A stretch of DNA of 64,000 nt from Gemmatimonadales bacterium (lineage in GTDB: Bacteria; Gemmatimonadota; Gemmatimonadetes; Gemmatimonadales; GWC2-71-9). The notes under the pieces were generated by a model, which worked only from the letters and a program-made list of their open reading frames with translations, did no database searches and had not been told where the DNA came from. The stretch lies in contig JBFGDF010000001.1 of assembly GCA_041580775.1 (NCBI GenBank), positions 22,219 through 86,218 of the forward strand, given 5' to 3'. The position numbers and the translations under genes were made by a program. This document shows, piece after piece, positions 3,180-23,140 of this stretch. The stretch's first letter is position 1. Each line of letters begins with the position of its first letter.

Positions 3180-5840
<2,661 letters not shown>

Positions 5841-9078: not shown

Positions 9079-9180
9079 CGGATTCCTCCTGAGTGACGGC
9101 AGATACGCTAGCGCCGGAGCGGCATGGTTGCAATCGGTGCGCGGCAGCCCGTTCATTGGGGGAACCCCAAGGAGGGAGCC

Positions 9181-9855
9181 ATGTCTCAGTCATCGCCGGC
9201 GCGCCGCCCGTCCGGACCCCGGGAGCCGGTCCGCGCCCTGGTCTTCGCCGCATCGCTCCGTAAGGACTCGCTCAACGCCAAACTCGCCGAGCTGGCCGCC
9301 GCTGTGGTGGAGGCGCACGGCGGCAGCGTGGACCGCGCGACGATGCGTGAGTTCGACGGGCCGTCCTACGACGCGGACGCGCAACAGGCCAGCGGGTTCC
9401 CGCCGGGTGCCGAGGCGTTTCGCCGGCGCGTCGAAGCGAGCGACTGCCTCGTCATCGCCTCGCCCGAATACAACTTCTCCATGCCGGGCGCCCTCAAGAA
9501 CGCCATCGATTGGGTCTCGCGCTTCCGCCCACAGCCGTTCAACGAGCGCCACGCGCTGCTGCTCTCGGTCTCCCCTTCGATGGTCGGCGGCAATCGGGGG
9601 TTGTGGGCCCTGCGGGTGCCGCTCGAGCACCTGGGCACGCGCGTGTACCCGGACATGTTCTCGCTGGCGCAGGCACACCAGGCGTTTGACGCGAACGGCC
9701 GCATCGCCAATGCGCAGCTGCAGGAGCGCTTCGAGCGTACGGTGGCCGGATTCCTCGACCTCGTCGAGGCCGCCAAGCACTACCCCTGCGCCAAGAAAGC
9801 GTGGATCGAGTTCCTGGGGGAGCACCCCGATCCGGCAACCGATCGCGTCGAGTGA
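9181..9855 (+). CDS. NAD(P)H-dependent FMN reductase family protein
   Basis: LVFAASLRKDSLNAKLA...IASPEYNFSMPGALKNAIDWVSR. RBS GGAGGGAG at 9171-9178 points to ATG 9181 rather than the ORF-track start at 9124. Confidence 0.75.
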   Translation: MSQSSPARRPSGPREPVRALVFAASLRKDSLNAKLAELAAAVVEAHGGSVDRATMREFDGPSYDADAQQASGFPPGAEAFRRRVEASDCLVIASPEYNFSMPGALKNAIDWVSRFRPQPFNERHALLLSVSPSMVGGNRGLWALRVPLEHLGTRVYPDMFSLAQAHQAFDANGRIANAQLQERFERTVAGFLDLVEAAKHYPCAKKAWIEFLGEHPDPATDRVE

Positions 9856-11006
9856 TTCCCGTCGCCGTGCTGGTCGTCGCAGCGGTACTCCTAATGATGC
9901 TGGCGGTCCCTGTCGCGATCGACGCATTCGCCAACCGGCGGGGACGGGCGGAGTTGGCGTCCGTGTCGCCCGCCGCGCGCACACTGCACGCGCGCCTCTG
10001 GATTGCCGACCTCCACGCCGATTCACTGCTCTGGCATCGCAACCTGCTCGTGGAGCACCGGCGCGGGCATGTCGATCTGCCACGCCTCTTTCGGGGGAAC
10101 GTCGCCCTCCAGGTCTTCACGGTCGTGTCGAAGGTCCCGTTCGGCCTCAACTTCGAGAGCAACGCGGCAACGACCGACATGATCACGCCGCTCACCGTGC
10201 TGCAGCGACGGCCGGTGGCGACATGGTTCAGCCTGTACGCTCGAGCGCAGCACGAGGCGCGCCGACTGCACGCGTTCGCCGCTGCCTCGGATGGCCGGTT
10301 GGCGGTGGTGACGACTGCGCGAGACGTCGAGGCGCTGGCCGCGCGACGCGCGCGCGGCGAGCGCCTGGTGGGCGGCCTCCTCGGCATCGAAGGTGCGCAG
10401 GTGCTCGAGGGGAAGATGGCGAATCTCGACACCCTGTTTGCCGCGGGCTTTCGACTGCTGGCGCTGACGCACTTCTTCGACACGGACGTTGCCGGGTCGG
10501 CCCACGGGGTGCGCAAGGGCGGGCTCACGCCGCTGGGCCGGCAAGTCGTGCCGCGTATGGAGCAGCTGGGGATGATCGTCGACCTCGCGCACGCGTCGTC
10601 CGCCACGATCGACGACGTGACCGCACTCGCCAGCAGGCCCGTGCTGGTCTCTCACACGGGCGTCGTCGGCACCCGTCCGACCCCCCGCAACCTCACCGAT
10701 GCGCAGCTCGACCGGGTCGCGGCCACCGGCGGGCTGATCGGCATCACATTCTTCCCTCACGCCGTGGGCGGGAGGGACGTGGACGCCATCGTGCGGGCCA
10801 TCCGTCATACCGTGGACCGGGTCGGCGTCACCCACGTGGCACTCGGCTCCGATTTCGACGGCGCCGTACGCACGCCGTTCGACGCTGCCGGCCTTCCGGT
10901 GCTGACGGACGCATTGCTGGCCGGCGGGTTCGGCGACGAGGAAATCGCGGCCATCATGGGCGAGAACGTGCGGCGCTTCCTGCTGGCGACCCTGCCGCGC
11001 GATTAG
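9852..11006 (+). CDS. Membrane dipeptidase (peptidase M19)
   Basis: DLHADSLLW, LTHFFDTD, DLAHAS, VSHTG and GSDFDG blocks. N-terminal TM segment. GTG 9852 overlaps the upstream stop (GTGA). The alternative start at 9801 is less likely. Confidence 0.75.
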   Translation: MIPVAVLVVAAVLLMMLAVPVAIDAFANRRGRAELASVSPAARTLHARLWIADLHADSLLWHRNLLVEHRRGHVDLPRLFRGNVALQVFTVVSKVPFGLNFESNAATTDMITPLTVLQRRPVATWFSLYARAQHEARRLHAFAAASDGRLAVVTTARDVEALAARRARGERLVGGLLGIEGAQVLEGKMANLDTLFAAGFRLLALTHFFDTDVAGSAHGVRKGGLTPLGRQVVPRMEQLGMIVDLAHASSATIDDVTALASRPVLVSHTGVVGTRPTPRNLTDAQLDRVAATGGLIGITFFPHAVGGRDVDAIVRAIRHTVDRVGVTHVALGSDFDGAVRTPFDAAGLPVLTDALLAGGFGDEEIAAIMGENVRRFLLATLPRD

Positions 11007-12428: not shown

Positions 12429-15053
12429 TCAGCGCCACTCCGCGAGCCAGATATCTCCGCCCTCGGGCGCCCAGCGGTCGAACAGGATCCAGCGCCCATC
12501 GGGTGACCAGACGGGGTAGTCGATGCGCACCTCCGGATCGTCGAAGCTGAAGACGGGATAGGGTGCGCCGCCGTCGAGCGGCGAGATCCAGATCCGCTGG
12601 TGGCCCAAGACGTCGGCGATGTGCGTGCCCGACGGGTTGAACGACATATGCCCCCCACCCTCGACCGTCGTGGGCTCGACGATCCCGTCGGCCACCCCCA
12701 CACGCATCGGGGCCGGTCCATCCGGTCCCGCCGGCCGGAAGTAGATCGTGCGCCCGTCCGCCGCCCACGGGACGAAGTGGCTCGGGCCCACCCCCGCAGT
12801 CGTTAGCGCGCGCTGCTCGGCCCCGTCCGCCCGCATGACCCACAGTTCCATGCGCCCCTGCCGATCCGACTGGAACGCAATGCGCTGGCCATCGGGCGAG
12901 AACGACGGATTGATGTCGAGCCACGGGCTGGTGGTGAGCTGCGTCAACTGGCCCGTCGCGACGTCGGCGAGCCAGATGTCGCTGTTCCCGCTCCGCGCGG
13001 AAAAGAAGACCACGCGCGTCCCGTCGGGGGACCAGCGCGGCTGATAGTCGCCGCCGGGGCCGCGCGTGAGCTGCCGATCGACGTGGCCCGCCACGTCGTG
13101 AATCCAGATGTTCATGTCCCCGGAGCGGTCGGAGTTGAAGGCGATGGACCGCCCGTCGGGCGACCACGAGCCGCGACTGTCCTCCCGGGTCGTCACCACC
13201 ACCGGCTCGGGATTCCCGCGGGGGCGTCCCGTGACCGGATCGACCGGCAGCCGCCACAGGTCGGCGTTGATTCTGAGCACCGTGAACGCGAGGCGGCCAC
13301 CCGCCGGCGACGCGGCGAGTTGCACGTCCTGACCGGCGCCGGTCGTGATCTGCACGGGGAGTCCGGCGGGTTCCCCGCGCGCGCCCACCGGCAGCCGCCA
13401 CACGTTGAGGCCGCCGCTCCGATACGAGGAGAAGTCGATGGCGGTGCCGTCGGCGGTCCAGACGGGGTTCACGTCGAGGAACGGATCGTCGGTGACCCGG
13501 CGCGTTTCCCCGCCGACGGCGTCGACGACGCCGATGTCGAACTTCGTCCGTTCGATGTGCTGATACGCCAGCAGTCGCCCGCCAGGCGACCAGCTCGGGT
13601 CGACGTGGGTCACCGCCTCGGAGCTGTCCGTCGTCACCTGCCGCGCGTTGCGTCCCCGCGCGTCCGCCACCCAGATGCGCCGCGTGCCCGCGAACGACGC
13701 GTCGAAGGCGATCCGGCCGTCGGCCGCGACGGCCGGATTGTACGCGTCCGTGATCAACCGCTCCTCGGTGCGGGCCGTGAGTGCCAGCCGCCAGATGTCC
13801 CCACCGCTGAAGACGGCGAACACGTCGCCCGGCTCGAGGCGGGTTCTCGCGCGCTGCGCCCGGACGAACAGGATCGCCTGCCCGTCGGGCGTCCACGCGG
13901 GCTGGATATGGTCGAACTCCCCGCGCGTGAGCGGCTCCTCTCGTCCGTCCGCGAGGCTCGTCAGCACGAGTTGGCGGAGCCCGTTCACGTCCCGGCTGAA
14001 CACCAATCGCTCACCATCGGGCGCGAGACTGGGATACTCCTCCACTTCCGGGGAGAACGTGACCTGGCGCAGGGTGGTCACCATGGTCCCGCCCGAACTC
14101 GGACCACCGGCGCGCCCGAGCAGCACGACGGCGACCGCGACCGCGACCGCGAGGACGACGGCCGCGCCGACCCAGCGGACCCGCGATCCCGCAAGCCGGT
14201 CCTGCCGGGGCGCGGCGGGCATCCCCGGCTCGATCGCCCGGATCAGCTCCACCGCCGTGGTGTACCGATCGGCCGGGTTCTTGGCCAGCAGGCGATCGAG
14301 CGCTCCCGCGATCTCGCGCGGCACCCGGGGCCGGAGCTGCGTCACGTCGCGCGGCGTCGCCGAGAGATGTTGATGGACGAGACTCTCGACCGTGGGCCCG
14401 CTGAACGGCGGCTCTCCGGTCAGCATCTCGTAGAGCAGGCAGCCGAGCGCGTACAGATCGCTGCGGCCGTCGAGATCCTGGCCGCCGGCGGCCTGCTCGG
14501 GGCTCATGTAGAGCGGAGTGCCCAGCGCGAGTCCGGTCTGCGTGAGGGTCTCGCCCCCGGCCGCACTGACGGCCTTCGCAATGCCGAAGTCGGCGACCAC
14601 CGCGTGCCCGCTCTCCAGCAGGACGTTCTCGGGCTTGATGTCACGGTGGATCACACCCCGCGAGTGGGCGTAACCGAGTGCGTCCGCGACCTCGCGCGTG
14701 ATCTGAACGGCCTCCGCGACGGGCAGCTGCTTCTCCCGATCGAGGCGGTCGCGCAACGTCTCGCCTTCGGCGTAGGGCATGACGTAGAAGAGGAACTCGC
14801 CGGCCTGCCCGCTGTCGTACAGCGGCAGGATGTGTGGATGCCGGAGGTTGGCCGTGGTCTCGATCTCGCGGAGGAACCGCTCGGGACCGAGGGCATGGGT
14901 CAACTCGGGACGCAGCACTTTGAGTGCGACGCGCCGCTTGTGCCGCAGGTCCTCGGCCAGATAGACCGTCGCCATGCCCCCGGCGCCGAGCCCGCGCTCG
15001 ATGCGGTAGCGGTCGGCGAGGGCGGAGGCGAGCGGCGCGGGTACGTCGGTCAT
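12429..15053 (-). CDS. Hanks-type Ser/Thr protein kinase with TM segment and C-terminal TolB-like (PD40) beta-propeller repeats
   Basis: GAGGMATVYLAED, VALKVL, HRDIKPEN, DFGIA and SPEQ. TM segment VGAAVVLAVAVAVAVVLL. Many SPDG/WSPDG repeat units follow. I prefer ATG 15053 (MTDVPAPL) over GTG 15059. Confidence 0.85.
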   Translation of the reverse strand: MTDVPAPLASALADRYRIERGLGAGGMATVYLAEDLRHKRRVALKVLRPELTHALGPERFLREIETTANLRHPHILPLYDSGQAGEFLFYVMPYAEGETLRDRLDREKQLPVAEAVQITREVADALGYAHSRGVIHRDIKPENVLLESGHAVVADFGIAKAVSAAGGETLTQTGLALGTPLYMSPEQAAGGQDLDGRSDLYALGCLLYEMLTGEPPFSGPTVESLVHQHLSATPRDVTQLRPRVPREIAGALDRLLAKNPADRYTTAVELIRAIEPGMPAAPRQDRLAGSRVRWVGAAVVLAVAVAVAVVLLGRAGGPSSGGTMVTTLRQVTFSPEVEEYPSLAPDGERLVFSRDVNGLRQLVLTSLADGREEPLTRGEFDHIQPAWTPDGQAILFVRAQRARTRLEPGDVFAVFSGGDIWRLALTARTEERLITDAYNPAVAADGRIAFDASFAGTRRIWVADARGRNARQVTTDSSEAVTHVDPSWSPGGRLLAYQHIERTKFDIGVVDAVGGETRRVTDDPFLDVNPVWTADGTAIDFSSYRSGGLNVWRLPVGARGEPAGLPVQITTGAGQDVQLAASPAGGRLAFTVLRINADLWRLPVDPVTGRPRGNPEPVVVTTREDSRGSWSPDGRSIAFNSDRSGDMNIWIHDVAGHVDRQLTRGPGGDYQPRWSPDGTRVVFFSARSGNSDIWLADVATGQLTQLTTSPWLDINPSFSPDGQRIAFQSDRQGRMELWVMRADGAEQRALTTAGVGPSHFVPWAADGRTIYFRPAGPDGPAPMRVGVADGIVEPTTVEGGGHMSFNPSGTHIADVLGHQRIWISPLDGGAPYPVFSFDDPEVRIDYPVWSPDGRWILFDRWAPEGGDIWLAEWR

Positions 15054-15061
15054 GGGCACCT

Positions 15062-16213: not shown

Positions 16214-17824
16214 CTATCCCCGGAGCAGCCCCGGTGGCGCCGCATGGGGCAGCGCCGGCCGCGCGGAGGCCACCAGCTCACGGGCGACGATCGCCAGCCG
16301 ATCGATGAGCCGCTCCAACTCCGCGATGCGGCGCTTGGTGGCGTAGTGATACGAGGTCCGCGCCACAGCGAACGTGACGCCCAGCCAGAGCGGGAGAATC
16401 ACCGGGATGGCCACCTCGGCCACACCCAGCGCACCGACGAGGATGCCGATGATCGGGCCCGCGCCGCCGCCACCCATCCCCCCCCCGATCCCCCCATAGA
16501 TGCCGCCGATCAGGTTGCCGAGGTTCTCCTGCACGGCGATACGCGTGCGTCCGCCGCGCACCGACACGATCACTTCCAGCGTGCGCCCACCGCCGCTCCG
16601 GGGCGTCGCGGTCCAGGTGAACGACCGGCCGAGCTGGCTCACCTGCCCCACGTTGCGGAGCTCGCGCCGGATCTCGTCCACCAGCACGGGGAAGTCCAGC
16701 TCCTCGACCTCGCCGTCCACGATGCGTTCGTACGCGAGCCGGGTGGGGCCGCCGAGCCAGCGGTTCCGCCGCGGCGGGTCCGGGGGCGGCGCCGGGGACG
16801 TGTGACGCGCGTCCATGGATTGCGCCGCCGAGTGGACGAGGTCCACGGGAATCCCCACTTCCGCCGCGAGCGCCTCGACCCCGCCGATCGTGAGCGCGCC
16901 GCTGGCGGTGGGGTTCGTGGCCTCGAGCTCGGCCGCGCGTCGCACGATCTCCCGTACCTCCTGCTCGGCGAACCGGCGGCGCGGGGTGGCGACACCCCGC
17001 AACTCATCGAGCAGGGCCCCCGGCGTGGGGGTGCGCTGGTCGTGGCGGATCGCGAGGCCGCGCACCAGTGCCCCCTCGATGGTCGGGCCGGCCTGCGCGA
17101 GCCGCGCGCGGTGGGCAGGCGTCGCCTCCAGAAGGCGGCCGACCCGCACCGCCTCCTCAGTGGGCCAGCGTCCGGGCGCTTCCCCTACGAGCATCTCGTA
17201 GACCAGAACCGCCAGGCTGTAGACGTCCGTTCGCTCATCGAGATCCATGAGGCCCGCCGCCTGCTCGGGGCTCATGTAGCCCGGCGTGCCCAACGGGAAT
17301 CCCGTGCGGGTGAGGTTGGCCCCACCGGCCGTGCTGATGGCCTTGGCAATGCCGAAGTCCGCCACCACGGGATGCCCCTGCGAGAAGAGGATGTTCTCGG
17401 GCTTGATGTCGCGATGGAAGAAGCCCATGCGGTGGGCGTAGGTCAGCGCGTCGGCCACCGGCCCGGCCACCGCCAGCGCCTCGTCGGGCTCCAGCCGGCG
17501 CCCACCCTCGAGCCGCTGGCGCAACGAGCCGCCCTCGATGAACGGCATCACGTAGTAGAGGAAGCCGCGCGCCTCACCCGAGACGTACAGCGCGAGGATG
17601 TGCGGGTGGTTGAGCCGGGCCGCGATCTGGATCTCTTTGAGGAACCGCTCGGCGCCGAGCGAGGCGGCCAGGTCGGGCCGGAGCACCTTCATCGCCACCT
17701 CGCGCTGATGCTTGGCATCCCACGCGAGGTAGACTGTCGCCATGCCGCCGCGACCGAGCACCCGCTTCAGGGTGTCGCGATCGGCGACGGCGGCAACGAG
17801 GTCGGGCGGAAGGTCGGACGCCAT
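16214..17824 (-). CDS. Hanks-type Ser/Thr protein kinase with a C-terminal Gly-rich membrane segment
   Basis: GRGGMATVYLAWD, VAMKVL, HRDIKPEN, DFGIA and SPEQ. C-terminal GGIYGGIGGGMGGGGAGPIIGILVGALGVAEVAIPVILPLWL. Real start is ATG 17824 (MASDLPP). Confidence 0.85.
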   Translation of the reverse strand: MASDLPPDLVAAVADRDTLKRVLGRGGMATVYLAWDAKHQREVAMKVLRPDLAASLGAERFLKEIQIAARLNHPHILALYVSGEARGFLYYVMPFIEGGSLRQRLEGGRRLEPDEALAVAGPVADALTYAHRMGFFHRDIKPENILFSQGHPVVADFGIAKAISTAGGANLTRTGFPLGTPGYMSPEQAAGLMDLDERTDVYSLAVLVYEMLVGEAPGRWPTEEAVRVGRLLEATPAHRARLAQAGPTIEGALVRGLAIRHDQRTPTPGALLDELRGVATPRRRFAEQEVREIVRRAAELEATNPTASGALTIGGVEALAAEVGIPVDLVHSAAQSMDARHTSPAPPPDPPRRNRWLGGPTRLAYERIVDGEVEELDFPVLVDEIRRELRNVGQVSQLGRSFTWTATPRSGGGRTLEVIVSVRGGRTRIAVQENLGNLIGGIYGGIGGGMGGGGAGPIIGILVGALGVAEVAIPVILPLWLGVTFAVARTSYHYATKRRIAELERLIDRLAIVARELVASARPALPHAAPPGLLRG

Positions 17825-17861
17825 GGGGCGGGAATATAGGGCGGAACGACGGAACGACGGA
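17825..17861 (-). promoter_or_regulatory. Leaderless-type promoter: TCCGTC (17861-17856) - 17 nt - TATATT (17838-17833) - 8 nt - ATG
   Basis: The minus strand reads TCCGTC-N17-CCCTATATTCCCGCCCC-ATG. The same architecture, with a 16/18-identical core block, recurs at 22094-22130. Confidence 0.5.
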
Positions 17862-17874
17862 ATGGCGGAACGGA
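17843..17874. repeat. Four tandem 8-mers GGAACGAC GGAACGAC GGAATGGC GGAACGGA
   Basis: Read directly from the sequence. Forms a TTCCG-periodic C/T-rich tract on the minus (coding) strand upstream of the kinase -10 box. Confidence 0.9.
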
Positions 17875-17876
17875 AA

Positions 17877-17908
17877 GGTTGGGCGGTTGGGCGGTTGGGC
17901 GGTTGGGC
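17877..17908. repeat. Four perfect tandem copies of GGTTGGGC (G-arm)
   Basis: Read directly from the sequence. Fits the G3-N5-G3-N5-G3-N5-G3 quadruplex pattern and is nearly complementary to the array at 17923-17957. Confidence 0.95.
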
Positions 17909-17922
17909 GGTGCGCTGATTCT

Positions 17923-17957
17923 CCACCCGCCCATCCGCCCATCCGCCCATCCGCCCG
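17923..17957. repeat. CCACCCGC followed by three perfect CCATCCGC copies (C-arm), abutting the stop codon at 17958
   Basis: Read directly from the sequence. The reverse complement GCGGATGG differs from GGTTGGGC-type pairing by one position per unit. Confidence 0.95.
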
Positions 17958-18947
17958 TTAGAACCGCCCTTCCCGCACCTGGCCCTTCCCGAGCCCGCGG
18001 CGGAGGTCGATCACCGTCTGAGGCGTGAGGCTCTCGTTCTCCGGCAGCGGGACGTCGCCCTTCGCCTTCCCCATGGCCACGACGCTCTTCAGGCGCTGGA
18101 GCACGCCCGCGCCCTCGACGGCGGTTTCCCCCTCAGCGTAGTACTCGAACCAGGGGATGTCGGCCCGTGCGTAGTCGCGCGCGGTGAGGGGCGCGGTAGG
18201 GGGCTCCTCTCCGGTGATCGCGCGCCACACCAGCGAGTTGGCCAGGTGGACGAAGCAGCGGTGCCCGTGGTCGAGGTCCCAGACGTCGAGCGGCCGATGA
18301 TCGCGATAGATCTCCTGCCGCATCCGTCCTCCGGGCGCAAGCCCCATGTCGAAGGACTTCGCGAACAGAGCACGGCCCAGCGAGGCACCGGTGACGGACG
18401 CCCCCTCGATCGGCGGCCGGTAATGCTGCCGCTTGATGGGGTACACGTGGAGCTGGAGCCCGCCGTGCTCGGCGGCGCCGGTGATCTGCTCTTCCGCGGA
18501 GTAGCCGGCACCGAGCGGCATGGCCACGAACTGCCGGATTATGCCCTTCTCCACGCAGAAGCCGTCCAGCCAAGGCTGCCCGGGTGTCACCGCGTAGTCC
18601 TGCGGCCCCCGGTGCAGGCCCGGTCGGTAGGCTTCCCCGGTGACGGCGTTGATCTTGCCAGCGGCGATCTTCACGGCGCACGGGTACCCGCCATGGAAGT
18701 TGATCCACAGGGCTTCCGACTGGTACATCGGCAGCAGCACGCCGCCGTGCTCGAGCCAGCGCGCCGGCACCCGCTCGGCGAAATCGTCCACGTGACGGAG
18801 TGGGAATCGGCCCAGGCCCGCCGGCAGCGGGTACTCGCGATCGTCGTCGGGGATGCGCAGCGTGCGCTGGAACTCGATGCGCAGCTCGGCGTCCGCGTGG
18901 ACGTCCGGGAACCGGACGAGCAATTGGTCCTTCTGCAGTTCGATCAT
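17958..18947 (-). CDS. Hypothetical cytoplasmic protein, 329 aa, family not recognised
   Basis: Clean 329-aa ORF with no TM segment or signal peptide. Distinctive blocks are RTLRIPDDDREYPLPAGLGRFPL, MYQSEALWINF, KIAAGKINAVTGE and GIIRQFVAMPLGAGYSAEEQITG. Lies 15 nt downstream of the XRE gene. Confidence 0.7.
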   Translation of the reverse strand: MIELQKDQLLVRFPDVHADAELRIEFQRTLRIPDDDREYPLPAGLGRFPLRHVDDFAERVPARWLEHGGVLLPMYQSEALWINFHGGYPCAVKIAAGKINAVTGEAYRPGLHRGPQDYAVTPGQPWLDGFCVEKGIIRQFVAMPLGAGYSAEEQITGAAEHGGLQLHVYPIKRQHYRPPIEGASVTGASLGRALFAKSFDMGLAPGGRMRQEIYRDHRPLDVWDLDHGHRCFVHLANSLVWRAITGEEPPTAPLTARDYARADIPWFEYYAEGETAVEGAGVLQRLKSVVAMGKAKGDVPLPENESLTPQTVIDLRRGLGKGQVREGRF

Positions 18948-18962
18948 GGGCGCCTCCTCGGC

Positions 18963-19319
18963 TTACCACTTGCCGTCGCGCACGTCGCGCACCAAGCGCA
19001 GGACGGCGCGGTCGGGCATGTCCTTGAGCTCCCGGATCAGCGTGGCGAACAGCTCGGGCCGCTTGCGGATGGCCGCCTGCAGATCCGAGGAGACCTTGCC
19101 CGCAAGGGCGAGGAGCACGTCGGGATCCTCGCCGAGCTCGCCGGCCAAGGCCACGATCTTGGCCTCCGAGGGCGGCGGCGTCTCGTCCCGTTCGACCTTG
19201 CTCAGGAACGAGGGCTCGACGCCGATCCGCTGGGCGACCTGCCGGAGGGAGTAGCGGTCGTTGTGCGCGCGCAGTGCCTCGCGGCGGGTCCGGACGTAGT
19301 CACCAAAGCCGGTGGTCAC
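18963..19319 (-). CDS. XRE-family helix-turn-helix transcriptional regulator
   Basis: 118 aa with a GTG start. HTH region YSLRQVAQRIGVEPSFLSKVERDE. Confidence 0.75.
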   Translation of the reverse strand: MTTGFGDYVRTRREALRAHNDRYSLRQVAQRIGVEPSFLSKVERDETPPPSEAKIVALAGELGEDPDVLLALAGKVSSDLQAAIRKRPELFATLIRELKDMPDRAVLRLVRDVRDGKW

Positions 19320-19325
19320 ATGTGT

Positions 19326-19354
19326 AGTATGTACTACTTAGTACACGCTGTCAA
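19326..19354 (-). promoter_or_regulatory. Promoter with embedded palindromic operator for the XRE operon
   Basis: The minus strand reads TTGACA (19354-19349), a 17-nt spacer, CATACT (19331-19326), then GTG about 7 nt downstream. The spacer contains the perfect palindrome GTACTA-AG-TAGTAC (19331-19344). AT-rich island in GC-rich DNA. Confidence 0.55.
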
Positions 19355-19437
19355 GGGTTGGGGGGCGGACGGGCGGATGGCAGTCCCGTGCGTCGGTGTC
19401 GCTCTACCACCCTCCGCTCACCCGCTCACCCGCCCTT
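19355..19437. repeat. G-arm / loop / C-arm repeat hairpin element abutting the stop codon at 19438
   Basis: G-arm GGGTTGGGGGGCGGACGGGCGGATGG (19355-19380). C-arm CCACCCTCCGCTCACCCGCTCACCCGCCC (19407-19435), which contains two tandem CTCACCCG copies. Same layout and shared GGTTGGG / CCATCCGCCC cores as 17877-17957. Confidence 0.7.
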
Positions 19438-20670
19438 TCACCCGAAGAACAGATACGCGATGAAGATCCCGGCCACGACCGCGGTGAAATCGGCGATCAG
19501 CCCGCACGTCACCGCGTGTCGGGTCTTCCGCACACCCACCGACCCGAAGTAGAGCGCGATGATGTAGAACGTGGTGTCGGTGGACCCCTGGAACGTGCTC
19601 GCCAGCCGACCGACGAACGAGTCCGCCCCGTACGTCTGCATGGCATCCACCATCATCCCCCGCGCCCCGCTCCCGCTCAGCGGCTTCATCAGCGCCGTGG
19701 GCAGCGCCGGGATGAAGTCCGTGTTGAGGCCGACCGCACCGAACGCCTTGCCGATCCCCGCCACCAGGAGCTCCATCGTCCCGGACGCGCGAAACACGCC
19801 GATGGCCACGAGGATGGCCACGAGGTAGGGGATGATCTTGACCGCGACCGCGAACCCGTCCTTGGCGCCTTCGATGAACGCCTCGTACACGTTCACCCGC
19901 CGGACCATGGCCAGCGCGATGAATGCGGCGATGACGCCGAACAGCGTCACGTTGGCCACCACGTTCGAGACCGTCTCCACCTGCGCCTGTGGCAGCCGCG
20001 AGAAATAGCCGAGTGTGGCGGCGACCAGCCCGGTGAGTCCGAGCAGATAGGCCAGGACCACCTTGTCGAACAGATTGATCCGCTGCACGACGGCCACGGC
20101 GACCAGCCCCGCCACCGTGGAGAAGAACGTCGTCAGCAGGATGGGCAGGAAGATGTCGGACGGGTTGGCGGCGCCCAGCTGTGCGCGGTAGACCATGATG
20201 CTGATGGGAATCACCGTGAGACCCGACGTATTCAGCACCAGGAACATGATCTGGGCGTTGGACGCCGTGTCCTCGCTGGGATTCAGTTCCTGCAGCTCCT
20301 GCATGGCCTTGAGGCCCAGCGGCGTCGCGGCGTTATCGAGGCCCAGCATGTTCGCCGCGAAATTCATGATGATCGAGCCGTGCACCGGATGATCCCGCGG
20401 GACTTCCGGAAACAACCGTCGGAAGAACGGGCGCACGACCGTCGCGAGCGCGTTGATCGCCCCGCCCTTCTCGCCAACCTTCATCAGGCCCAGCCACAGC
20501 GTGAGCACGCCGGTGAGGCCGAGCGCGATCTCGAACCCCACCTTGGCCATCTCGAACGTGCTGTTGACCATGGCCGTGAAGACCTGGGTATCGCCGAAGA
20601 AGACCAGCTTGACGAGGCCCACGACCAGCGCAACGAGGAAGAAGGCGATCCAGATGTAGTTGAGGACCAT
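19438..20670 (-). CDS. Fused SpmA/SpmB-like nucleoside-recognition (Gate) domain membrane protein
   Basis: The real start MVLNYIWIAFFLVALVVGLVKL (ATG 20670) matches typical SpmA N-termini. Polytopic membrane protein of 410 aa. NAATPLGLKAMQELQELNP block. Confidence 0.7.
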   Translation of the reverse strand: MVLNYIWIAFFLVALVVGLVKLVFFGDTQVFTAMVNSTFEMAKVGFEIALGLTGVLTLWLGLMKVGEKGGAINALATVVRPFFRRLFPEVPRDHPVHGSIIMNFAANMLGLDNAATPLGLKAMQELQELNPSEDTASNAQIMFLVLNTSGLTVIPISIMVYRAQLGAANPSDIFLPILLTTFFSTVAGLVAVAVVQRINLFDKVVLAYLLGLTGLVAATLGYFSRLPQAQVETVSNVVANVTLFGVIAAFIALAMVRRVNVYEAFIEGAKDGFAVAVKIIPYLVAILVAIGVFRASGTMELLVAGIGKAFGAVGLNTDFIPALPTALMKPLSGSGARGMMVDAMQTYGADSFVGRLASTFQGSTDTTFYIIALYFGSVGVRKTRHAVTCGLIADFTAVVAGIFIAYLFFG

Positions 20671-20675
20671 GGAAC

Positions 20676-21386
20676 TCAGCTCGCGAGGGTGGGATCGGCG
20701 TGCGTGAGCAACTCCACCAGCACGGGCACGTGCGCGCGCACCAAGGCATCCGTGGACGCGAGGGGAAACTCGTAGGTGACGACCGCGAGGCCCTGCTCTC
20801 CGCCCCACGTGCCAAACGAGCCGGGCGTGGGGTAACCGATGTCCCGCACGAGCGGCAGGCCGGTGCGCGCCGCCAACCACTGCCCCAGCGCACTCGCATT
20901 GGCGTCATCGATGCAGGCGAGCGGTGCGTGTAGCGCGATCACGGTTTCGGGCCGTAACTCGGCAACCAGTCGCATCAGCGCCTGCGTCTCGGGCTCCGAC
21001 CCGGCATGCGCGCCCGGGCTCAGCCGCACGTCCTGCGGGTCGTCCAGCGTGGAGCGATGCGCCACCGGCTTTGACTGCCAGTCACGGGTGGGGAAGTTGC
21101 GGTTGAGCTCCACCCCGCGCGCGTTTCCCCGCGTGCCGCGGATCAGGCCGTCGGGATTGGCTGCGAGCACGACTGCGGCGTGAGGCGATGGCGCGGGCAG
21201 CTGACGGAGGGCGCGGGAGAGCGCGAACGTCGTTTCCGCTTCTTCCCCGTGAATCCCGGCAAAGAGCAACAGCGTGCACGGCCCCGCGGGACGCCACACC
21301 TCCAGCGGCACGCCCAAGTGGGACCGGCCGTATGTGTGCGGTTCCCAGAGGATCGTGCCCCAGTCCTGCCGCGGTCGGAGGCTCAT
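20676..21386 (-). CDS. MpaA-like M14 zinc carboxypeptidase (murein peptide amidase family)
   Basis: FAGIHGEEAETT and LAANPDGLIRGTRGNARGVELNRNF blocks. ATG 21386 overlaps the upstream stop (ATGA). Confidence 0.7.
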   Translation of the reverse strand: MSLRPRQDWGTILWEPHTYGRSHLGVPLEVWRPAGPCTLLLFAGIHGEEAETTFALSRALRQLPAPSPHAAVVLAANPDGLIRGTRGNARGVELNRNFPTRDWQSKPVAHRSTLDDPQDVRLSPGAHAGSEPETQALMRLVAELRPETVIALHAPLACIDDANASALGQWLAARTGLPLVRDIGYPTPGSFGTWGGEQGLAVVTYEFPLASTDALVRAHVPVLVELLTHADPTLAS

Positions 21387-22093
21387 GCGGTCGCCTGGTT
21401 CGTGTTGGTGACGAAACGAACGACGATCTCGTCGAGATGGGCCAGCACCACGCTCTTGAGGGCGAGGTCGGCGCCGCGGACCGTGTCGCGCAGCACGTCC
21501 GTGGTGAGGTGCCGCCCGTACGCGGCGGCGGTCGGCCCGTGGCTCAGGTGCCATCGCTCGGGCGCGACCCCGCCGCGATCGCGGTCGTACGGTCGGAAGA
21601 AGCCGTGCGCCGCGCCGGCGGCGATCCGCATGTCGAGCCATGCGTGCAGCGGGCCGAACATCCCGCCGGGATTCACCTCGGCGGGAATGAGCTCGATGTC
21701 GTAGCCCGCGGGCTGGGCAGCCCGGTCGAAGACGTCCAGATCCGTCCCCCAGTGATGGCGCGACGCGCCCGGCAGCGCCGACCAGCGCAGGATCGCAAAC
21801 ACCAGGTCCTTGGCGCTCAGGGTCGCGATGTCGAGGGGCGCCGCGTCACTGTCGAGCACGGCGCGCTGCCCGGTCGCCTTGCGGTTCCAGATGGACAGTT
21901 GCTGCGCGAAGCTGCGGAACCCACTCAGGATCTGGAGATCGAATCCGGCCGCGTGCGCGTCCCGCTGCAAGCGGCGGAATGGCTCGACCACGTCCTGATG
22001 CACCGGGACGCCCAGTGACGCGGCGACGATTGGTGCACAGAGATGCTGCTCCGTCTGACCGGTCAGCACGGCGGGCGGCGGGCGGGGCGGCAT
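21383..22093 (-). CDS. M15-family D-Ala-D-Ala / LD-carboxypeptidase (VanY/LdcB-like)
   Basis: SGFRSFAQQ, SRHHWGTDLD and ERWHLSH blocks, the usual M15B metal ligands. Confidence 0.7.
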   Translation of the reverse strand: MPPRPPPAVLTGQTEQHLCAPIVAASLGVPVHQDVVEPFRRLQRDAHAAGFDLQILSGFRSFAQQLSIWNRKATGQRAVLDSDAAPLDIATLSAKDLVFAILRWSALPGASRHHWGTDLDVFDRAAQPAGYDIELIPAEVNPGGMFGPLHAWLDMRIAAGAAHGFFRPYDRDRGGVAPERWHLSHGPTAAAYGRHLTTDVLRDTVRGADLALKSVVLAHLDEIVVRFVTNTNQATA

Positions 22094-22130
22094 GGTGCGG
22101 GAATATAGGGTGGAAGGACGGACGGACGGA
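22094..22130 (-). promoter_or_regulatory. Leaderless-type promoter: TCCGTC (22130-22125) - 17 nt - TATATT (22107-22102) - 8 nt - ATG
   Basis: The minus strand reads TCCGTC-N17-CCCTATATTCCCGCACC-ATG, a near copy of the kinase promoter at 17825-17861. Confidence 0.5.
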
Positions 22131-22159
22131 AAGACGGACGGACAGACGCAGGGACGGTC
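22116..22159. repeat. GGAC-type tetranucleotide tract (about 11 units: GGAC, GGAA, AGAC, GGTC variants)
   Basis: Read directly from the sequence. C/T-rich on the coding strand, between the RES toxin stop (22173) and the -10 box. Confidence 0.85.
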
Positions 22160-22172
22160 GGTGGGATCGTCA

Positions 22173-22670
22173 TCAAGCAGGGGGAATGGTCTCTCGGCCG
22201 GAGCCGACGGCGAGATCGATCCCCGCCGCCAGGCCGTCCTGATAGACCATCAGGTTGATCGCGCCGGCGAGGGCGGCCGACGGGGCGAGCAGGCCGACGG
22301 CCCCGGCCCGCCGCGCGGCGTCGCTCAGCGTGCGACACAGCTCGATCGCGGCGTCGGTGTCGCGGGTCAAGTCGTCGAGGCGAACGCGAAACCGCTTCCG
22401 CTCCGCCCGGTCGGTGAGATCGAGCACCGGCTCGACGCGGTGCACGTCGATGCTCACGAGCTCGCGCGGGGCGAGCCGGATCCCGGGTGCCCACCCCGCC
22501 ACCAGTTTCCGGTATTCCGCGATCGCGCCCTCGCGGGTCGTCGAGGTATAGAGGCAGCCGTACCGGCCGGCGCGGTTCCACCGGCCGCGCGCTCTGACGA
22601 TGTAGGCGAAGTTGAGGGGAAACCCGCCGGCCGGCACGTGACGCCACACGCGACCGGCCCAGCTGATCAC
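22173..22670 (-). CDS. RES-domain toxin
   Basis: GRWNRAGRYGCLYTS...REGAIAEY...LLAPSAA supplies the R-E-S signature. GTG 22670 overlaps the antitoxin stop (GTGA). The longer ORF-track version (to 22979) is antisense of the antitoxin. Confidence 0.8.
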   Translation of the reverse strand: MISWAGRVWRHVPAGGFPLNFAYIVRARGRWNRAGRYGCLYTSTTREGAIAEYRKLVAGWAPGIRLAPRELVSIDVHRVEPVLDLTDRAERKRFRVRLDDLTRDTDAAIELCRTLSDAARRAGAVGLLAPSAALAGAINLMVYQDGLAAGIDLAVGSGRETIPPA

Positions 22671-23086
22671 GTGTAGGCGCCCGACTCGAGGGTCGCGAGC
22701 ACCTCGATGACCGCCGCGATGTGGCCGCGTGTGATCTCGCCCAGGGGCGAGCGGCCACGGAGGGCCGCCGATGGGGCGTGCGCCCACTCGAGCGCGGCGG
22801 TCCAGTCGGGAAACACCGTCTCGAGCAGATGCCGTGTCTCGCCCAGTTCCTCCAGGCGCCGGCGGTGCGCCGGTGACGGCGCCACCGCTCCGTCGGCCCA
22901 GCGGGCGACCGTGCGGGCCGACGCGCCGACCGCCGTGGCCACTTCCGCCAGGCTCAGCCCGAGGCGGGCGCGGGCCCACGCCACCGCGGCCGCGGCCTGG
23001 CGGGCCTTGAGGGCGGTATGCGCTCCTTCGGCCCTGCTGGGAACCGCGTCAATTCCTACCGCGTTCATTGGCAACGACTTAGCCAC
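22667..23086 (-). CDS. Xre-type antitoxin with C-terminal DUF2384-like toxin-binding domain
   Basis: HTH LSLAEVATAVGASARTVARWADG. C-terminal RGRSPLGEITRGHIAAVIEVLATLESGAY. GAGGAG (23092-23097) lies 5 nt upstream of GTG 23086. Confidence 0.8.
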   Translation of the reverse strand: MAKSLPMNAVGIDAVPSRAEGAHTALKARQAAAAVAWARARLGLSLAEVATAVGASARTVARWADGAVAPSPAHRRRLEELGETRHLLETVFPDWTAALEWAHAPSAALRGRSPLGEITRGHIAAVIEVLATLESGAYT

Positions 23087-23103
23087 CGGTACTCCTCACA
23101 GAT

Positions 23104-23140
23104 AATGACATATTCTATGTCATTATATATGACATTGCAA
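23104..23140 (-). promoter_or_regulatory. Toxin-antitoxin promoter TTGCAA-17 nt-TAGAAT with three ATGTCAT/ATGACAT operator half-sites
   Basis: -35 at 23135-23140 and -10 at 23112-23117 on the minus strand. Plus-strand motifs AATGACAT (23104-23111), ATGTCATT (23117-23124) and ATGACATT (23129-23136). The most AT-rich spot in the window. Confidence 0.6.

Follow-up and report, generated by a model that had tools for sequence, protein, structure and literature searches.

A gene-boundary hairpin with variable octamer arms in a Gemmatimonadales genome, and a possible class of such hairpins in Gemmatimonadota

Introduction

The repetitive extragenic palindromic (REP) sequences and bacterial interspersed mosaic elements (BIMEs) of enterobacteria are imperfect palindromes in transcribed intergenic spacers, often right after stop codons and within operons, where the hairpin RNA stabilises the upstream message, and the number of elements at a given site varies between strains. 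A REP element no more than about 15 nt from a stop codon also reduces translation of the gene that ends there, as Liang, Rudd & Deutscher 2015 reportedly found. An imperfect palindrome of comparable placement and variability, built from tandem octamers, is found in the 64,000-nt stretch of a Gemmatimonadales bacterium analysed here (GenBank assembly GCA_041580775.1, contig JBFGDF010000001.1, positions 22,219 to 86,218; G+C 70%; this whole stretch is hereafter the window), in the spacer between the gene for a 329-aa protein and a Ser/Thr protein kinase gene. With REP sequences and BIMEs, however, a single ~35-nt consensus is scattered in hundreds of copies and has a link to REP-associated tyrosine transposases (RAYTs), whereas the window element, and the proposed class of hairpins with which we compare it below, have site-specific units and tandem arms (period 8 or 7), place the G-rich arm first, and in some cases lie in coding sequence.

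Rickettsia palindromic elements (RPE) are reported (Ogata et al. 2000) to be able to sit in frame inside protein genes, and thus resemble the coding members of our class in being palindromic repeats within genes; RPE are, on the other hand, dispersed 100-150 bp copies of a few consensus families, contain no tandem octamers and are not tied to gene ends. A different likeness exists to the U-less 'I-shaped' terminator hairpins of GC-rich bacteria, which are GC-rich stem-loops that stand directly 3' of the stop codon and have little or no U-tract (the I-shape/L-shape classification is summarised in PMC8355165), although the window stem has 30 bp with periodic mismatches, a loop of 9-16 nt, and tandem arms of variable copy number. 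Termination by U-less hairpins is disputed (Czyz et al. 2014, cited in PMC8355165). The cyanobacterial heptamers (short tandemly repeated repetitive sequences, STRR, of Nostoc) and the TAACTGA repeats of Beggiatoaceae are, like the arrays described here, short non-triplet intergenic tandem repeats near promoters or gene starts, and such heptamer repeats are lineage-specific and variable in number, with either no known role or a supposed post-transcriptional one (PMC4679880; bioRxiv 10.1101/2022.06.06.494920). They use a single unit throughout the genome, mostly in direct arrays (PMC4679880 counts 169 direct sets and 1 indirect), in contrast to the complementary pairs, site-specific unit and period of 8 seen in the window class. 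The CTCTT repeats of Neisseria opa genes are slippage-prone non-triplet repeats in a signal-peptide coding region (PMC3960869), which is also where the coding members of our class (in a SPOR-domain gene and others) have their repeats, but opa carries a single direct array that switches the frame on and off, whereas orthologues within the class keep their frame and have paired arrays, and the window element is non-coding. None of these systems unites paired complementary arrays, site-specific units, a fixed arm order, and placement at a stop codon or in a signal peptide. In the literature that we covered, with most subscription journals outside its scope, we found no description of such elements, of terminators or of leaderless mRNAs in Gemmatimonadota.

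Results

Structure of the inverted repeat

Between the TAA that ends the 329-aa gene (17958-17960, minus strand, from the list of open reading frames (ORFs) and the sequence) and the kinase ATG (17822-17824) lies a 133-nt spacer with three arrays of period 8. Tandem Repeats Finder (TRF) places array 1, CGGAACGA, at 17842-17872 (3.9 copies, 86% matches), array 2, GGTTGGGC, at 17877-17911 (4.4 copies, 100% matches), and array 3, CCATCCGC, at 17923-17956 (4.2 copies, 96% matches), which is within 1-2 nt of the positions given in a note made earlier from the letters of the sequence (the original prediction). Read on the sense (minus) strand, the first half of the spacer is TAA-CGGGC-(GGATGGGC)3-GGGTGGAGAATCAGCGCA-(CCGCCCAA)4-CC, and the second half, following this CC, is TTTCCG-TTCCGCCA-TTCCGTCG-TTCCGTCG-TTCCGCCC-TATATT-CCCGCCCC-ATG. 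By eye, the two sense-strand frames other than that of the kinase are free of stop codons across 17825-17957.

Arrays 2 and 3 together (17877-17957) are an imperfect inverted repeat of 30-31 nt whose arms are octamer arrays. The G-rich 5' arm (17927-17957, minus strand), CGGGC(GGAUGGGC)x3 GGG, is delimited by TRF, the inverted-repeat search, a hairpin scan and the alleles described below, and has a period-8 self-match of 1.0; the C-rich 3' arm (17877-17910, minus strand), (CCGCCCAA)x4 CC, is delimited by TRF and the inverted-repeat search. Between them, a loop within GUGGAGAAUCAGCGCA (17911-17926, minus strand) is the same in all six assemblies that carry the hairpin and is partly paired in the minimum-energy fold, with 9 nt staying unpaired. 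The inverted-repeat search pairs 17881-17910 with 17927-17956, these 30-nt arms being 90% complementary and 16 nt apart, and bears out the near-complementarity claimed for arrays 2 and 3, in which a mismatch recurs once in each unit, as A-A in minus-strand RNA and as U-U in plus-strand RNA. The stem begins 0-3 nt past the TAA of the 329-aa gene, and the prediction of a long hairpin at this position is confirmed by the sequence and by the fold statistics.

When the surrounding 150-nt region is folded, both strands lie far below their shuffled counterparts: the minus strand gives -86.3 kcal/mol (z = -5.3; 0/200 shuffles as low) and the plus strand -86.2 kcal/mol (z = -4.1). The core hairpin of the window allele accounts for about -66 kcal/mol (-66.2), and a purpose-made hairpin scan ranks it as the strongest in the 64-kb window (score 67; runner-up 54). 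Chance as the origin of the arrays is excluded by the count of a window 16-mer, which, with as many as 3 mismatches allowed, has 7 occurrences where 1.5 are expected, a total of 7 being reached by no shuffle. The element as a whole occurs once in the 64 kb, and its periodicity exceeds what a simple terminator needs, as had been proposed.

A GC-rich stem-loop 3' of the stop codon on the sense strand, as a terminator would have, is present at this locus. The sequence just 3' of the stem is CCUUUCCGUU, and the U content there is 5/8 in the window (UUUCCGUU) and 4/8 (UUUCCGUC) in the related assembly L081. A consensus promoter and terminator scan returned nothing at the element, Rfam gave no match at gathering scores anywhere in the window, and a search of a plasmid collection found no match. 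In E-value mode, Rfam returned only generic long-hairpin matches to miRNA precursors, at about half their thresholds, which we rejected.

Array 1 as a separate, promoter-like module

The original prediction treated the three arrays as one element, a view that has to be given up: the TTCCG block formed by array 1 recurs at an unrelated VanY-family gene 4 kb away (22091-22140), and in relatives it follows the kinase block. On the sense strand, array 1 is a run of TTCCG units (CCUUUCCG UUCCGCCA UUCCGUCG UUCCGUCG UUCCGCCC; 17842-17876, minus strand; the GGAAYGRC array of the original prediction), delimited by TRF, the shared block and the alleles, that leads into TATATT, 8 nt and ATG. This -10-like hexamer, found as part of the shared motif, lies at 17833-17838 (minus strand), 8 nt 5' of the kinase ATG. 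The kinase layout is TTCCGTC-N17-TATATT-N8-ATG, ending ...TTCCGCCCTATATTCCCGCCCCATG, and the VanY layout is identical, ending ...TTCCACCCTATATTCCCGCACCATG; there, a second copy of the module, the ~50-nt block at 22091-22140, is fused to a (GGAC)n array of period 4 (together 22091-22161, minus strand) directly 5' of the VanY-family gene (21383-22093). The 25-nt motif TTCCNCCCTATATTCCCGCNCCATG occurs 2 times in the window against 0 expected. Further TANNNT-N6-8-ATG gene starts are found at 15053 (a paralogous kinase), 28249 and 37416. Because TANNNT stands 6-8 nt before these other likely gene starts, that of the paralogous kinase included, we infer that the TTCCG/TATATT block is a candidate promoter for a leaderless kinase mRNA, while a scan with the sigma-70 consensus finds nothing at the TATATT site. 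In relatives, moreover, the TTCCG block goes with the diverged kinase segment and the hairpin with the near-identical upstream segment. Judged from these arrangements, the three arrays are two distinct things, a promoter-like module (array 1) and a hairpin (arrays 2 and 3).

Alleles of the hairpin

Five further locus assemblies were reached by way of the 329-aa protein, and the hairpin is present in six independent assemblies (window, L081, L089, L001/L082, L090 and L091). Counted as units in the 5' arm, the 3' arm and the TTCCG array, the window allele is 3, 4 and 5, that of L081 is 3, 3 and 4, and that of L089 is 3, 1 and 6. The allele shared by L001 and L082 has 2 and 2 units in the arms, its contig stopping just beyond the hairpin, and the contigs of L090 and L091 stop within the array, after 3 units in the 5' arm of each and at least 3 (each CCGTCCAA) and at least 1 units, respectively, in the 3' arm. 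Variation in copy number, for which the original prediction had suggested a search, is therefore found in the 5' arm (2-3 units) and in the 3' arm (1-4 units), and the spacer measures 133 or 120 nt, a difference of 13 nt, between alleles. Since the arrays recur in six assemblies with different unit numbers, they are a hypermutable variable number tandem repeat (VNTR), with head-to-tail units whose number differs between close strains, and an assembly artefact, which the original prediction had allowed for, is excluded. The core hairpin energies of the four alleles folded are -66.2 (window), -54.7 (L081), -38.1 (L001) and -26.5 (L089) kcal/mol, and all four retain a minimal hairpin.

No difference separates L081 from L089 in 1368 nt of kinase gene or in the final 720 nt of the upstream gene; as unit numbers differ on these identical flanks, units change faster than point substitutions accumulate. 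Between L090 and the window there is 1 nt of difference in the 990-nt gene, yet the same C->T is present in all of the 3'-arm units of L090, every one of which contains CCGUCCAA; the L090 arm has thus undergone a rapid concerted change. In sense RNA, this C->U leaves G-U pairs, whereas in antisense RNA it gives A-C mismatches. It is the only change of pairing at the window locus, and a one-sided one; no two-sided change is seen among the six assemblies. An expression switch by copy number, whether through reading frame or promoter spacing, was not found, the arrays being outside ORFs; the promoter-proximal units and the TATATT-N8-ATG spacing are the same in all alleles, so that the core promoter geometry is unaffected by changes in unit number. 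The octamer arrays are absent from the orthologous loci with 62-84% protein identity (L002, L003, L083, L084, L086 and L087/L088), where the downstream genes are other ones.

Identity between the window and L081 is 97-99% at 18000-21150 and 87-92% below 17850, with the step falling at the element; third-codon divergence is 3.9% on the upstream side and 25.7% on the kinase side. This step points to a probable recombination junction at or beside the hairpin. Divergence between the two genomes was also noted at 21300-22050. We had at one time read the hairpin as being under purifying selection (0 substitutions against a third-position divergence of 12.7-25.7%), and have withdrawn this reading on finding that L089 is a mosaic of the L081 lineage.

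Related hairpins in metagenomic contigs

A metagenome scan with the motif GGWTGGGCGGWTGGGCGG gave at least 120 loci, mostly on soil contigs of 62-70% G+C and mostly in organisms other than that of the window. Partner arms were called by gapless complementarity, after a minimum-energy criterion had been dropped as too permissive. Among the matches listed, 87 arrays have at least 3 units of GG(A/T)TGGGC, and a complementary array lies 12-80 nt downstream of 23 of them and upstream of 1. A hairpin scan independent of the search motif, covering the 713 kb of metagenome loci listed, yielded 46 further strong hairpins (18 G-first, 2 C-first), many of which use other tandem units, such as GGTCGGAC, GGCCGGAC, GGTTGGAA, GGTGTCNG, GGGGCTNG and GTGAGAA. 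Of 45 G-first hairpins, 25 begin in the interval from -13 to +36 nt relative to the stop of a co-directional coding ORF, against 4.7% of random positions, an enrichment that is partly trivial because the control positions were not limited to intergenic DNA. In 557 kb of loci from other phyla, 0/24 strong hairpins have period-8 arms and the ratio of G-first to C-first is 4 to 3. The distances from stem to stop are mostly -13 to +16 nt in the class (0-3 nt for the window element), and the 8 nt 3' of the stem contain a mean of 1.6 T in class members. The window element shares the features of the proposed class, which are complementary arrays of 7-8 nt, the G-rich arm 5', and a start no more than about 15 nt from a co-directional stop; short-loop intergenic members that resemble it are found at L093/L135 and L206. 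An excess of G-U over A-C in the metagenome hairpins (34 vs 9) is expected from the way in which the loci were found, and we do not take it as evidence on the strand.

The hairpins persist at orthologous positions in orthologues of 75-80% protein identity. In about a dozen cases the start codon of an ORF overlaps the stop of the gene before it (ATGA or GTGA) and the hairpin falls within the 5' end of that ORF; in these coding members the G-array encodes ..AVGRLGGWAV.., the loop a hydrophobic stretch, and the C-array ..LTAQPPNRLTAQ followed by D, which together are a predicted signal peptide. One example is the SPOR-domain protein of soil Gemmatimonadales encoded by the ORF at L114, the 5' end of whose gene has four orthologue types with GGTTGGGC, GGTTGGAC, GGTCGGAC or GGATCGGC arrays, each accompanied by the matching 3' arm. 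These SPOR-gene folds have energies of -72 to -90 kcal/mol, and RNAalifold finds 36 consensus pairs, 10 of them changed on both sides, although the 10 amount to about 3 independent positions because the units in one array change together. Among 120 orthologous proteins, n-region and c-region types co-occur as 72, 8, 7 and 6 of the four matched types, a count that is confounded by phylogeny. An in-frame antisense test at the protein level, on 98 N-termini, gave a weak excess (5.4 vs 4.5 of 8). The n- and c-regions that are encoded as reverse complements include the pairs ..GRLGGWAV.. with ..TAQPPNRL.., ..SDGRTV.. with ..PTVRLS.. and ..ADRRI.. with ..PAIRLS... A peptide search with a 42-aa signal-peptide-like query gave no candidates.

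Signal peptides encoded by a hairpin of -72 to -90 kcal/mol, with the loop as hydrophobic core and the n- and c-regions as mutual reverse complements, were thus noted at several loci of soil Gemmatimonadales (L114 2202-2300; L232 10001-10100; L234 9348-9440; L237 10001-10100; L124 11630-11735; and L094 and L096/L136). The carriers include the SPOR-domain protein, which lies between holA and mutS, and an outer-membrane-like protein.

Intergenic members show a comparable turnover of units. At L158 (3631-3701) and L191 (12860-12929), the orthologous spacers that separate coaE (MLNVALTGNI...) from a gene ending ...DEDQTALL* hold G-first tandem-repeat hairpins made of unrelated units (GGGGCTNG-type and GGTGTCNG-type), and the layout in both is stop, a few nt, hairpin and then ATG, with the hairpin abutting the coaE start. 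In L004, a Gemmatimonadetes metagenome-assembled genome (MAG), an (ATTGCAG)n ... (CTGCAAT)n hairpin (4012-4150; -61.5 kcal/mol, z = -4.8) begins 5 nt past the TAA of the orthologue of the 329-aa gene; a short classic stem-loop, GGAGAGTCC-ttca-GGACTCTCC, follows it. As the class units GGTCGGAC, GGTTGGAC, GGATCGGC and ATTGCAG have no runs of three G, it is complementarity that is conserved, and not G-runs.

Additional arrays were seen in single contigs. L112 (Ga0224497_10000700), a sediment contig whose accession number is near that of the relative L082, has, at 418-507, 9138-9276 and 10190-10207, several arrays of GGTTAGGC / GGTTGGGC units, up to 12 in number, and a hairpin of the same units with 43-nt arms; to judge by this contig, some genomes may hold many copies of one unit type. 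Matches in viral contigs are mostly 2-unit coding matches. Two viral contigs of 51% G+C from IMG/VR, L213 and L214, carry 7-8 perfect GGATGGGC units beside G-rich short repeats at the contig end, a context that is unrelated to the Gemmatimonadota elements.

Neighbouring genes

The hairpin lies between the second and third of three tandem minus-strand genes. The first (18963-19319) encodes an HTH_31 regulator, the second (17958-18947, from the ORF list) the 329-aa protein, and the third (16214-17824), downstream of the element, a 536-aa Ser/Thr protein kinase (Pfam Pkinase, E = 3e-43) that starts MASDL, at a position that agrees with where the paralogous kinase at 15053 begins. Pfam, NCBIfam and PADLOC gave no family match for the 329-aa protein, and it is nonetheless conserved, at 53-65% identity, across Planctomycetota, Krumholzibacteriota, Poribacteria, Chloroflexota and Proteobacteria. 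A search of assemblies had no match on record for the exact window protein; P0123 has the same sequence as this protein. The 118-aa HTH_31 protein is encoded directly 5' of the 329-aa gene in all Gemmatimonadota loci inspected (window 17958-19319; L081-L088), and the two genes would, on the prediction from neighbourhood, form a conserved two-gene module.

Elsewhere in the window, a RES-domain (toxin-like) ORF lies directly upstream of the VanY promoter block (22173-22979), and a low-GC spacer near it contains an AT-rich, near-perfect palindrome of 17 nt, TCACAGATAATGACATA / TATGTCATTATATATGA, at 23096-23132, which is possibly an operator; L081 is unlike the window around both (22173-22979 and 23096-23132). 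L081 is also without the second module copy at the VanY gene, having in its place a GTGAGAAC x6 array, which provides both a GTG start and a GGAGG-like site, and the VanY translation-initiation region has in this way been exchanged between two genomes of 92-94% identity. In L081, the second kinase gene (window 12429-15059) has an in-frame insertion of 57 nt in a kinase-domain loop (L081 8120-8195; window ~14800-14815), made of octamer-like units (ATGACGGG x3, then ...CCGCCCACCCGCC...), and is without ~1.6 kb between the kinase domain and the PD40/Tricorn part, a gap that could be a deletion or an assembly chimera.

Discussion

The best-supported reading, to which we give even odds, is that the element is a cistron-boundary RNA hairpin with a stabilising, attenuating or insulating effect on the transcript and that replication slippage shapes it. 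What the data show is the anatomy of the element, its placement, its variable copy number, that there is a class of such hairpins, and that compensatory changes occur within that class; transcription of the element, activity as RNA and not as DNA, and the stabiliser or attenuator role are inferred. On this proposal, the element would be transcribed together with the upstream HTH / 329-aa gene pair, and a hairpin of about -66 kcal/mol would stand in that RNA directly after the stop codon. It would mark the 3' end of the upstream message and protect it from 3' exonucleases, attenuate read-through, or do both, and would insulate the kinase gene, whose own candidate promoter for a leaderless mRNA lies 50 nt beyond. 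With the stem directly against the stop codon, interference with termination of translation of the upstream gene is a further possibility; 3'-end protection, partial termination or insulation, and such interference are all possible and are not separable here. The repeats in the arms would arise by replication slippage, each arm gaining and losing units independently and unit variants spreading within an array, and the element would be a recent, non-coding representative, restricted to its lineage, of a class with frequent members in Gemmatimonadota. The G-first order might even shield the C-rich arm from Rho, although this is speculation. Support for the proposal comes from the strong fold statistics, the rank of the hairpin as the first in the window, and the minimal hairpin kept in every allele folded; in addition, the C->U change of L090 keeps pairing in the sense RNA and not in the antisense RNA. 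The class adds support through its G-first bias, its placement near stop codons, the lack of period-8 arms in strong hairpins from other phyla, and the hairpins of unrelated units at orthologous positions (the SPOR gene, the coaE spacers, and the 329-aa orthologue in L004).

Several observations weigh against such a function. Stem energy varies 2.5-fold between strains with identical flanks, so that stem length is not under tight selection, and relatives with 84% protein identity or less lack the element. A canonical U-tract appears to be missing, being weak in the window and absent in the class, and mycobacterial RNA polymerase needs a U-tract to terminate, going by what PMC8355165 cites from Czyz et al. 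2014. The class members in the holA-SPOR-mutS region lie inside operons and are therefore not efficient terminators, and the stop-codon enrichment is, as noted above, in part trivial. Finally, the upstream block near the hairpin is only ~1.5% diverged from the window, and zero changes in 57-73 nt are expected for that reason; a hairpin free of substitutions thus appears to carry no information on selection.

The main rival is a neutral one, in which a slippage-prone, quasi-palindromic minisatellite has grown in a tolerant spacer and owes its complementarity to templated (quasi-palindrome) repair. We regard this as unlikely, albeit with several facts of the locus in its favour: unit numbers differ on an identical background (3 in the 3' arm and 4 TTCCG units in L081, 1 and 6 in L089), one unit variant has swept the entire 3' arm of L090 although the upstream 990-nt gene differs by 1 nt, and the element is confined to one shallow lineage. 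Moreover, the 5'-arm unit GGGCGGAT resembles the last codons of the gene, GGGCGGTT, of which the 3' arm is the exact complement, and a local origin by duplication is suggested by this resemblance. What such an account does not predict is the behaviour of the class, whose members persist with compensated unit changes in orthologues of 75-80% identity, even inside coding sequence, show a G-first bias of 23 to 1 and 18 to 2 (among the matches listed), and have no counterpart as arrays in 557 kb of other phyla.

It is improbable, in our judgement, that the element acts as DNA, with the arrays extruding as a cruciform or hairpin that serves as a hot spot of recombination or replication pausing, or forming a periodic protein-binding site. 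The fall in identity between window and L081 at the element, from 97-99% to 87-92%, would fit a hot spot, as would the coincidence of other array spacers with rearrangements (the VanY upstream region and the in-frame insertion in the second kinase), and both strands fold equally well; this junction is, however, a single one that may be coincidental, and no transposase or recombinase gene was noticed in the flanks of the element, a genome-wide search being outside the scope. The L090 variant favours pairing in sense RNA (G-U against A-C), and a period of 8 bp is mismatched to the helical repeat that binding of a protein to one face would call for.

A coding role, in which the arrays would give the kinase an N-terminal extension of variable make-up or be the decayed 5' end of a lost gene with a hairpin-encoded signal peptide, was considered and rejected as highly improbable. 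The frame of the kinase is indeed free of stops from the upstream stop to the kinase ATG on the minus strand in the three complete alleles, the three GGATGGGC units give an ATG in each of the three frames and hence one in frame whatever the unit numbers, and the same octamers encode n- and c-regions of signal peptides (..GRLGGWAV.. and ..TAQPPNRLTAQ) in soil Gemmatimonadales. An open frame means little here, since G-rich and C-rich arrays lack stops in any frame. The decision rests on the 13-nt variation in spacer length (133 vs 120), by which the predicted peptide shifts frame in the hairpin part, on the loop, which encodes no hydrophobic core, and on the kinase start MASDL, which aligns with that of the paralogous kinase, a TANNNT-N8 box preceding both. 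The most improbable reading is that each array is a three-tetrad G-quadruplex, one per strand, in DNA or sense RNA, that regulates transcription or translation: the G3-N5-G3-N5-G3-N5-G3 pattern of the original prediction is present on both strands (17881-17907, plus; 17926-17956, minus), both sites having at least 4 G3 runs with loops of 1-7 nt, and at least 4 GGG runs occur in the sense 5' arm of all alleles, even of L089, whose G-array is mostly unpartnered, but nothing beyond the pattern stands behind it, such motifs showing no enrichment in the window over Markov-simulated sequence (9 vs 9.1 +/- 2.9), the complementary C-array lying 16 nt away on the same strand in a predicted hairpin of -66 kcal/mol, and class members at orthologous positions having units free of GGG runs.

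The window element itself is of a known kind, an intergenic palindromic or terminator-like hairpin, and there is a fair chance that the class behind it is new. We propose tentatively, with somewhat less than even confidence, that Gemmatimonadota have an apparently undescribed class of gene-boundary hairpins with hypermutable 7-8-mer arms, in G-first order, whose complementarity is kept through full turnover of the units and which, where genes overlap, lie within the signal-peptide region of the next gene. The arrays also matter in practice: they interrupt short-read contigs, three of the six ending within them, and coincide with a probable recombination junction, and so bear on MAG quality and strain typing. 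Were the class reading true, these hairpins would be a phylum-specific RNA (or DNA) device on mRNA boundaries, acting on translation coupling or Rho access, and a nucleic-acid constraint would be shaping signal-peptide sequences; this would be a clear case of nucleic-acid structure dictating the amino acids of a signal peptide, with a bearing on signal-peptide prediction and on the calling of gene starts in metagenomes. A class that is both real and functional would provide a natural allele series, of 1-4 units per arm, in which the strength of a hairpin beside a stop codon could be set against termination, mRNA decay and expression, and would give Gemmatimonadota, a major and little-studied soil phylum, a searchable marker of cistron boundaries.

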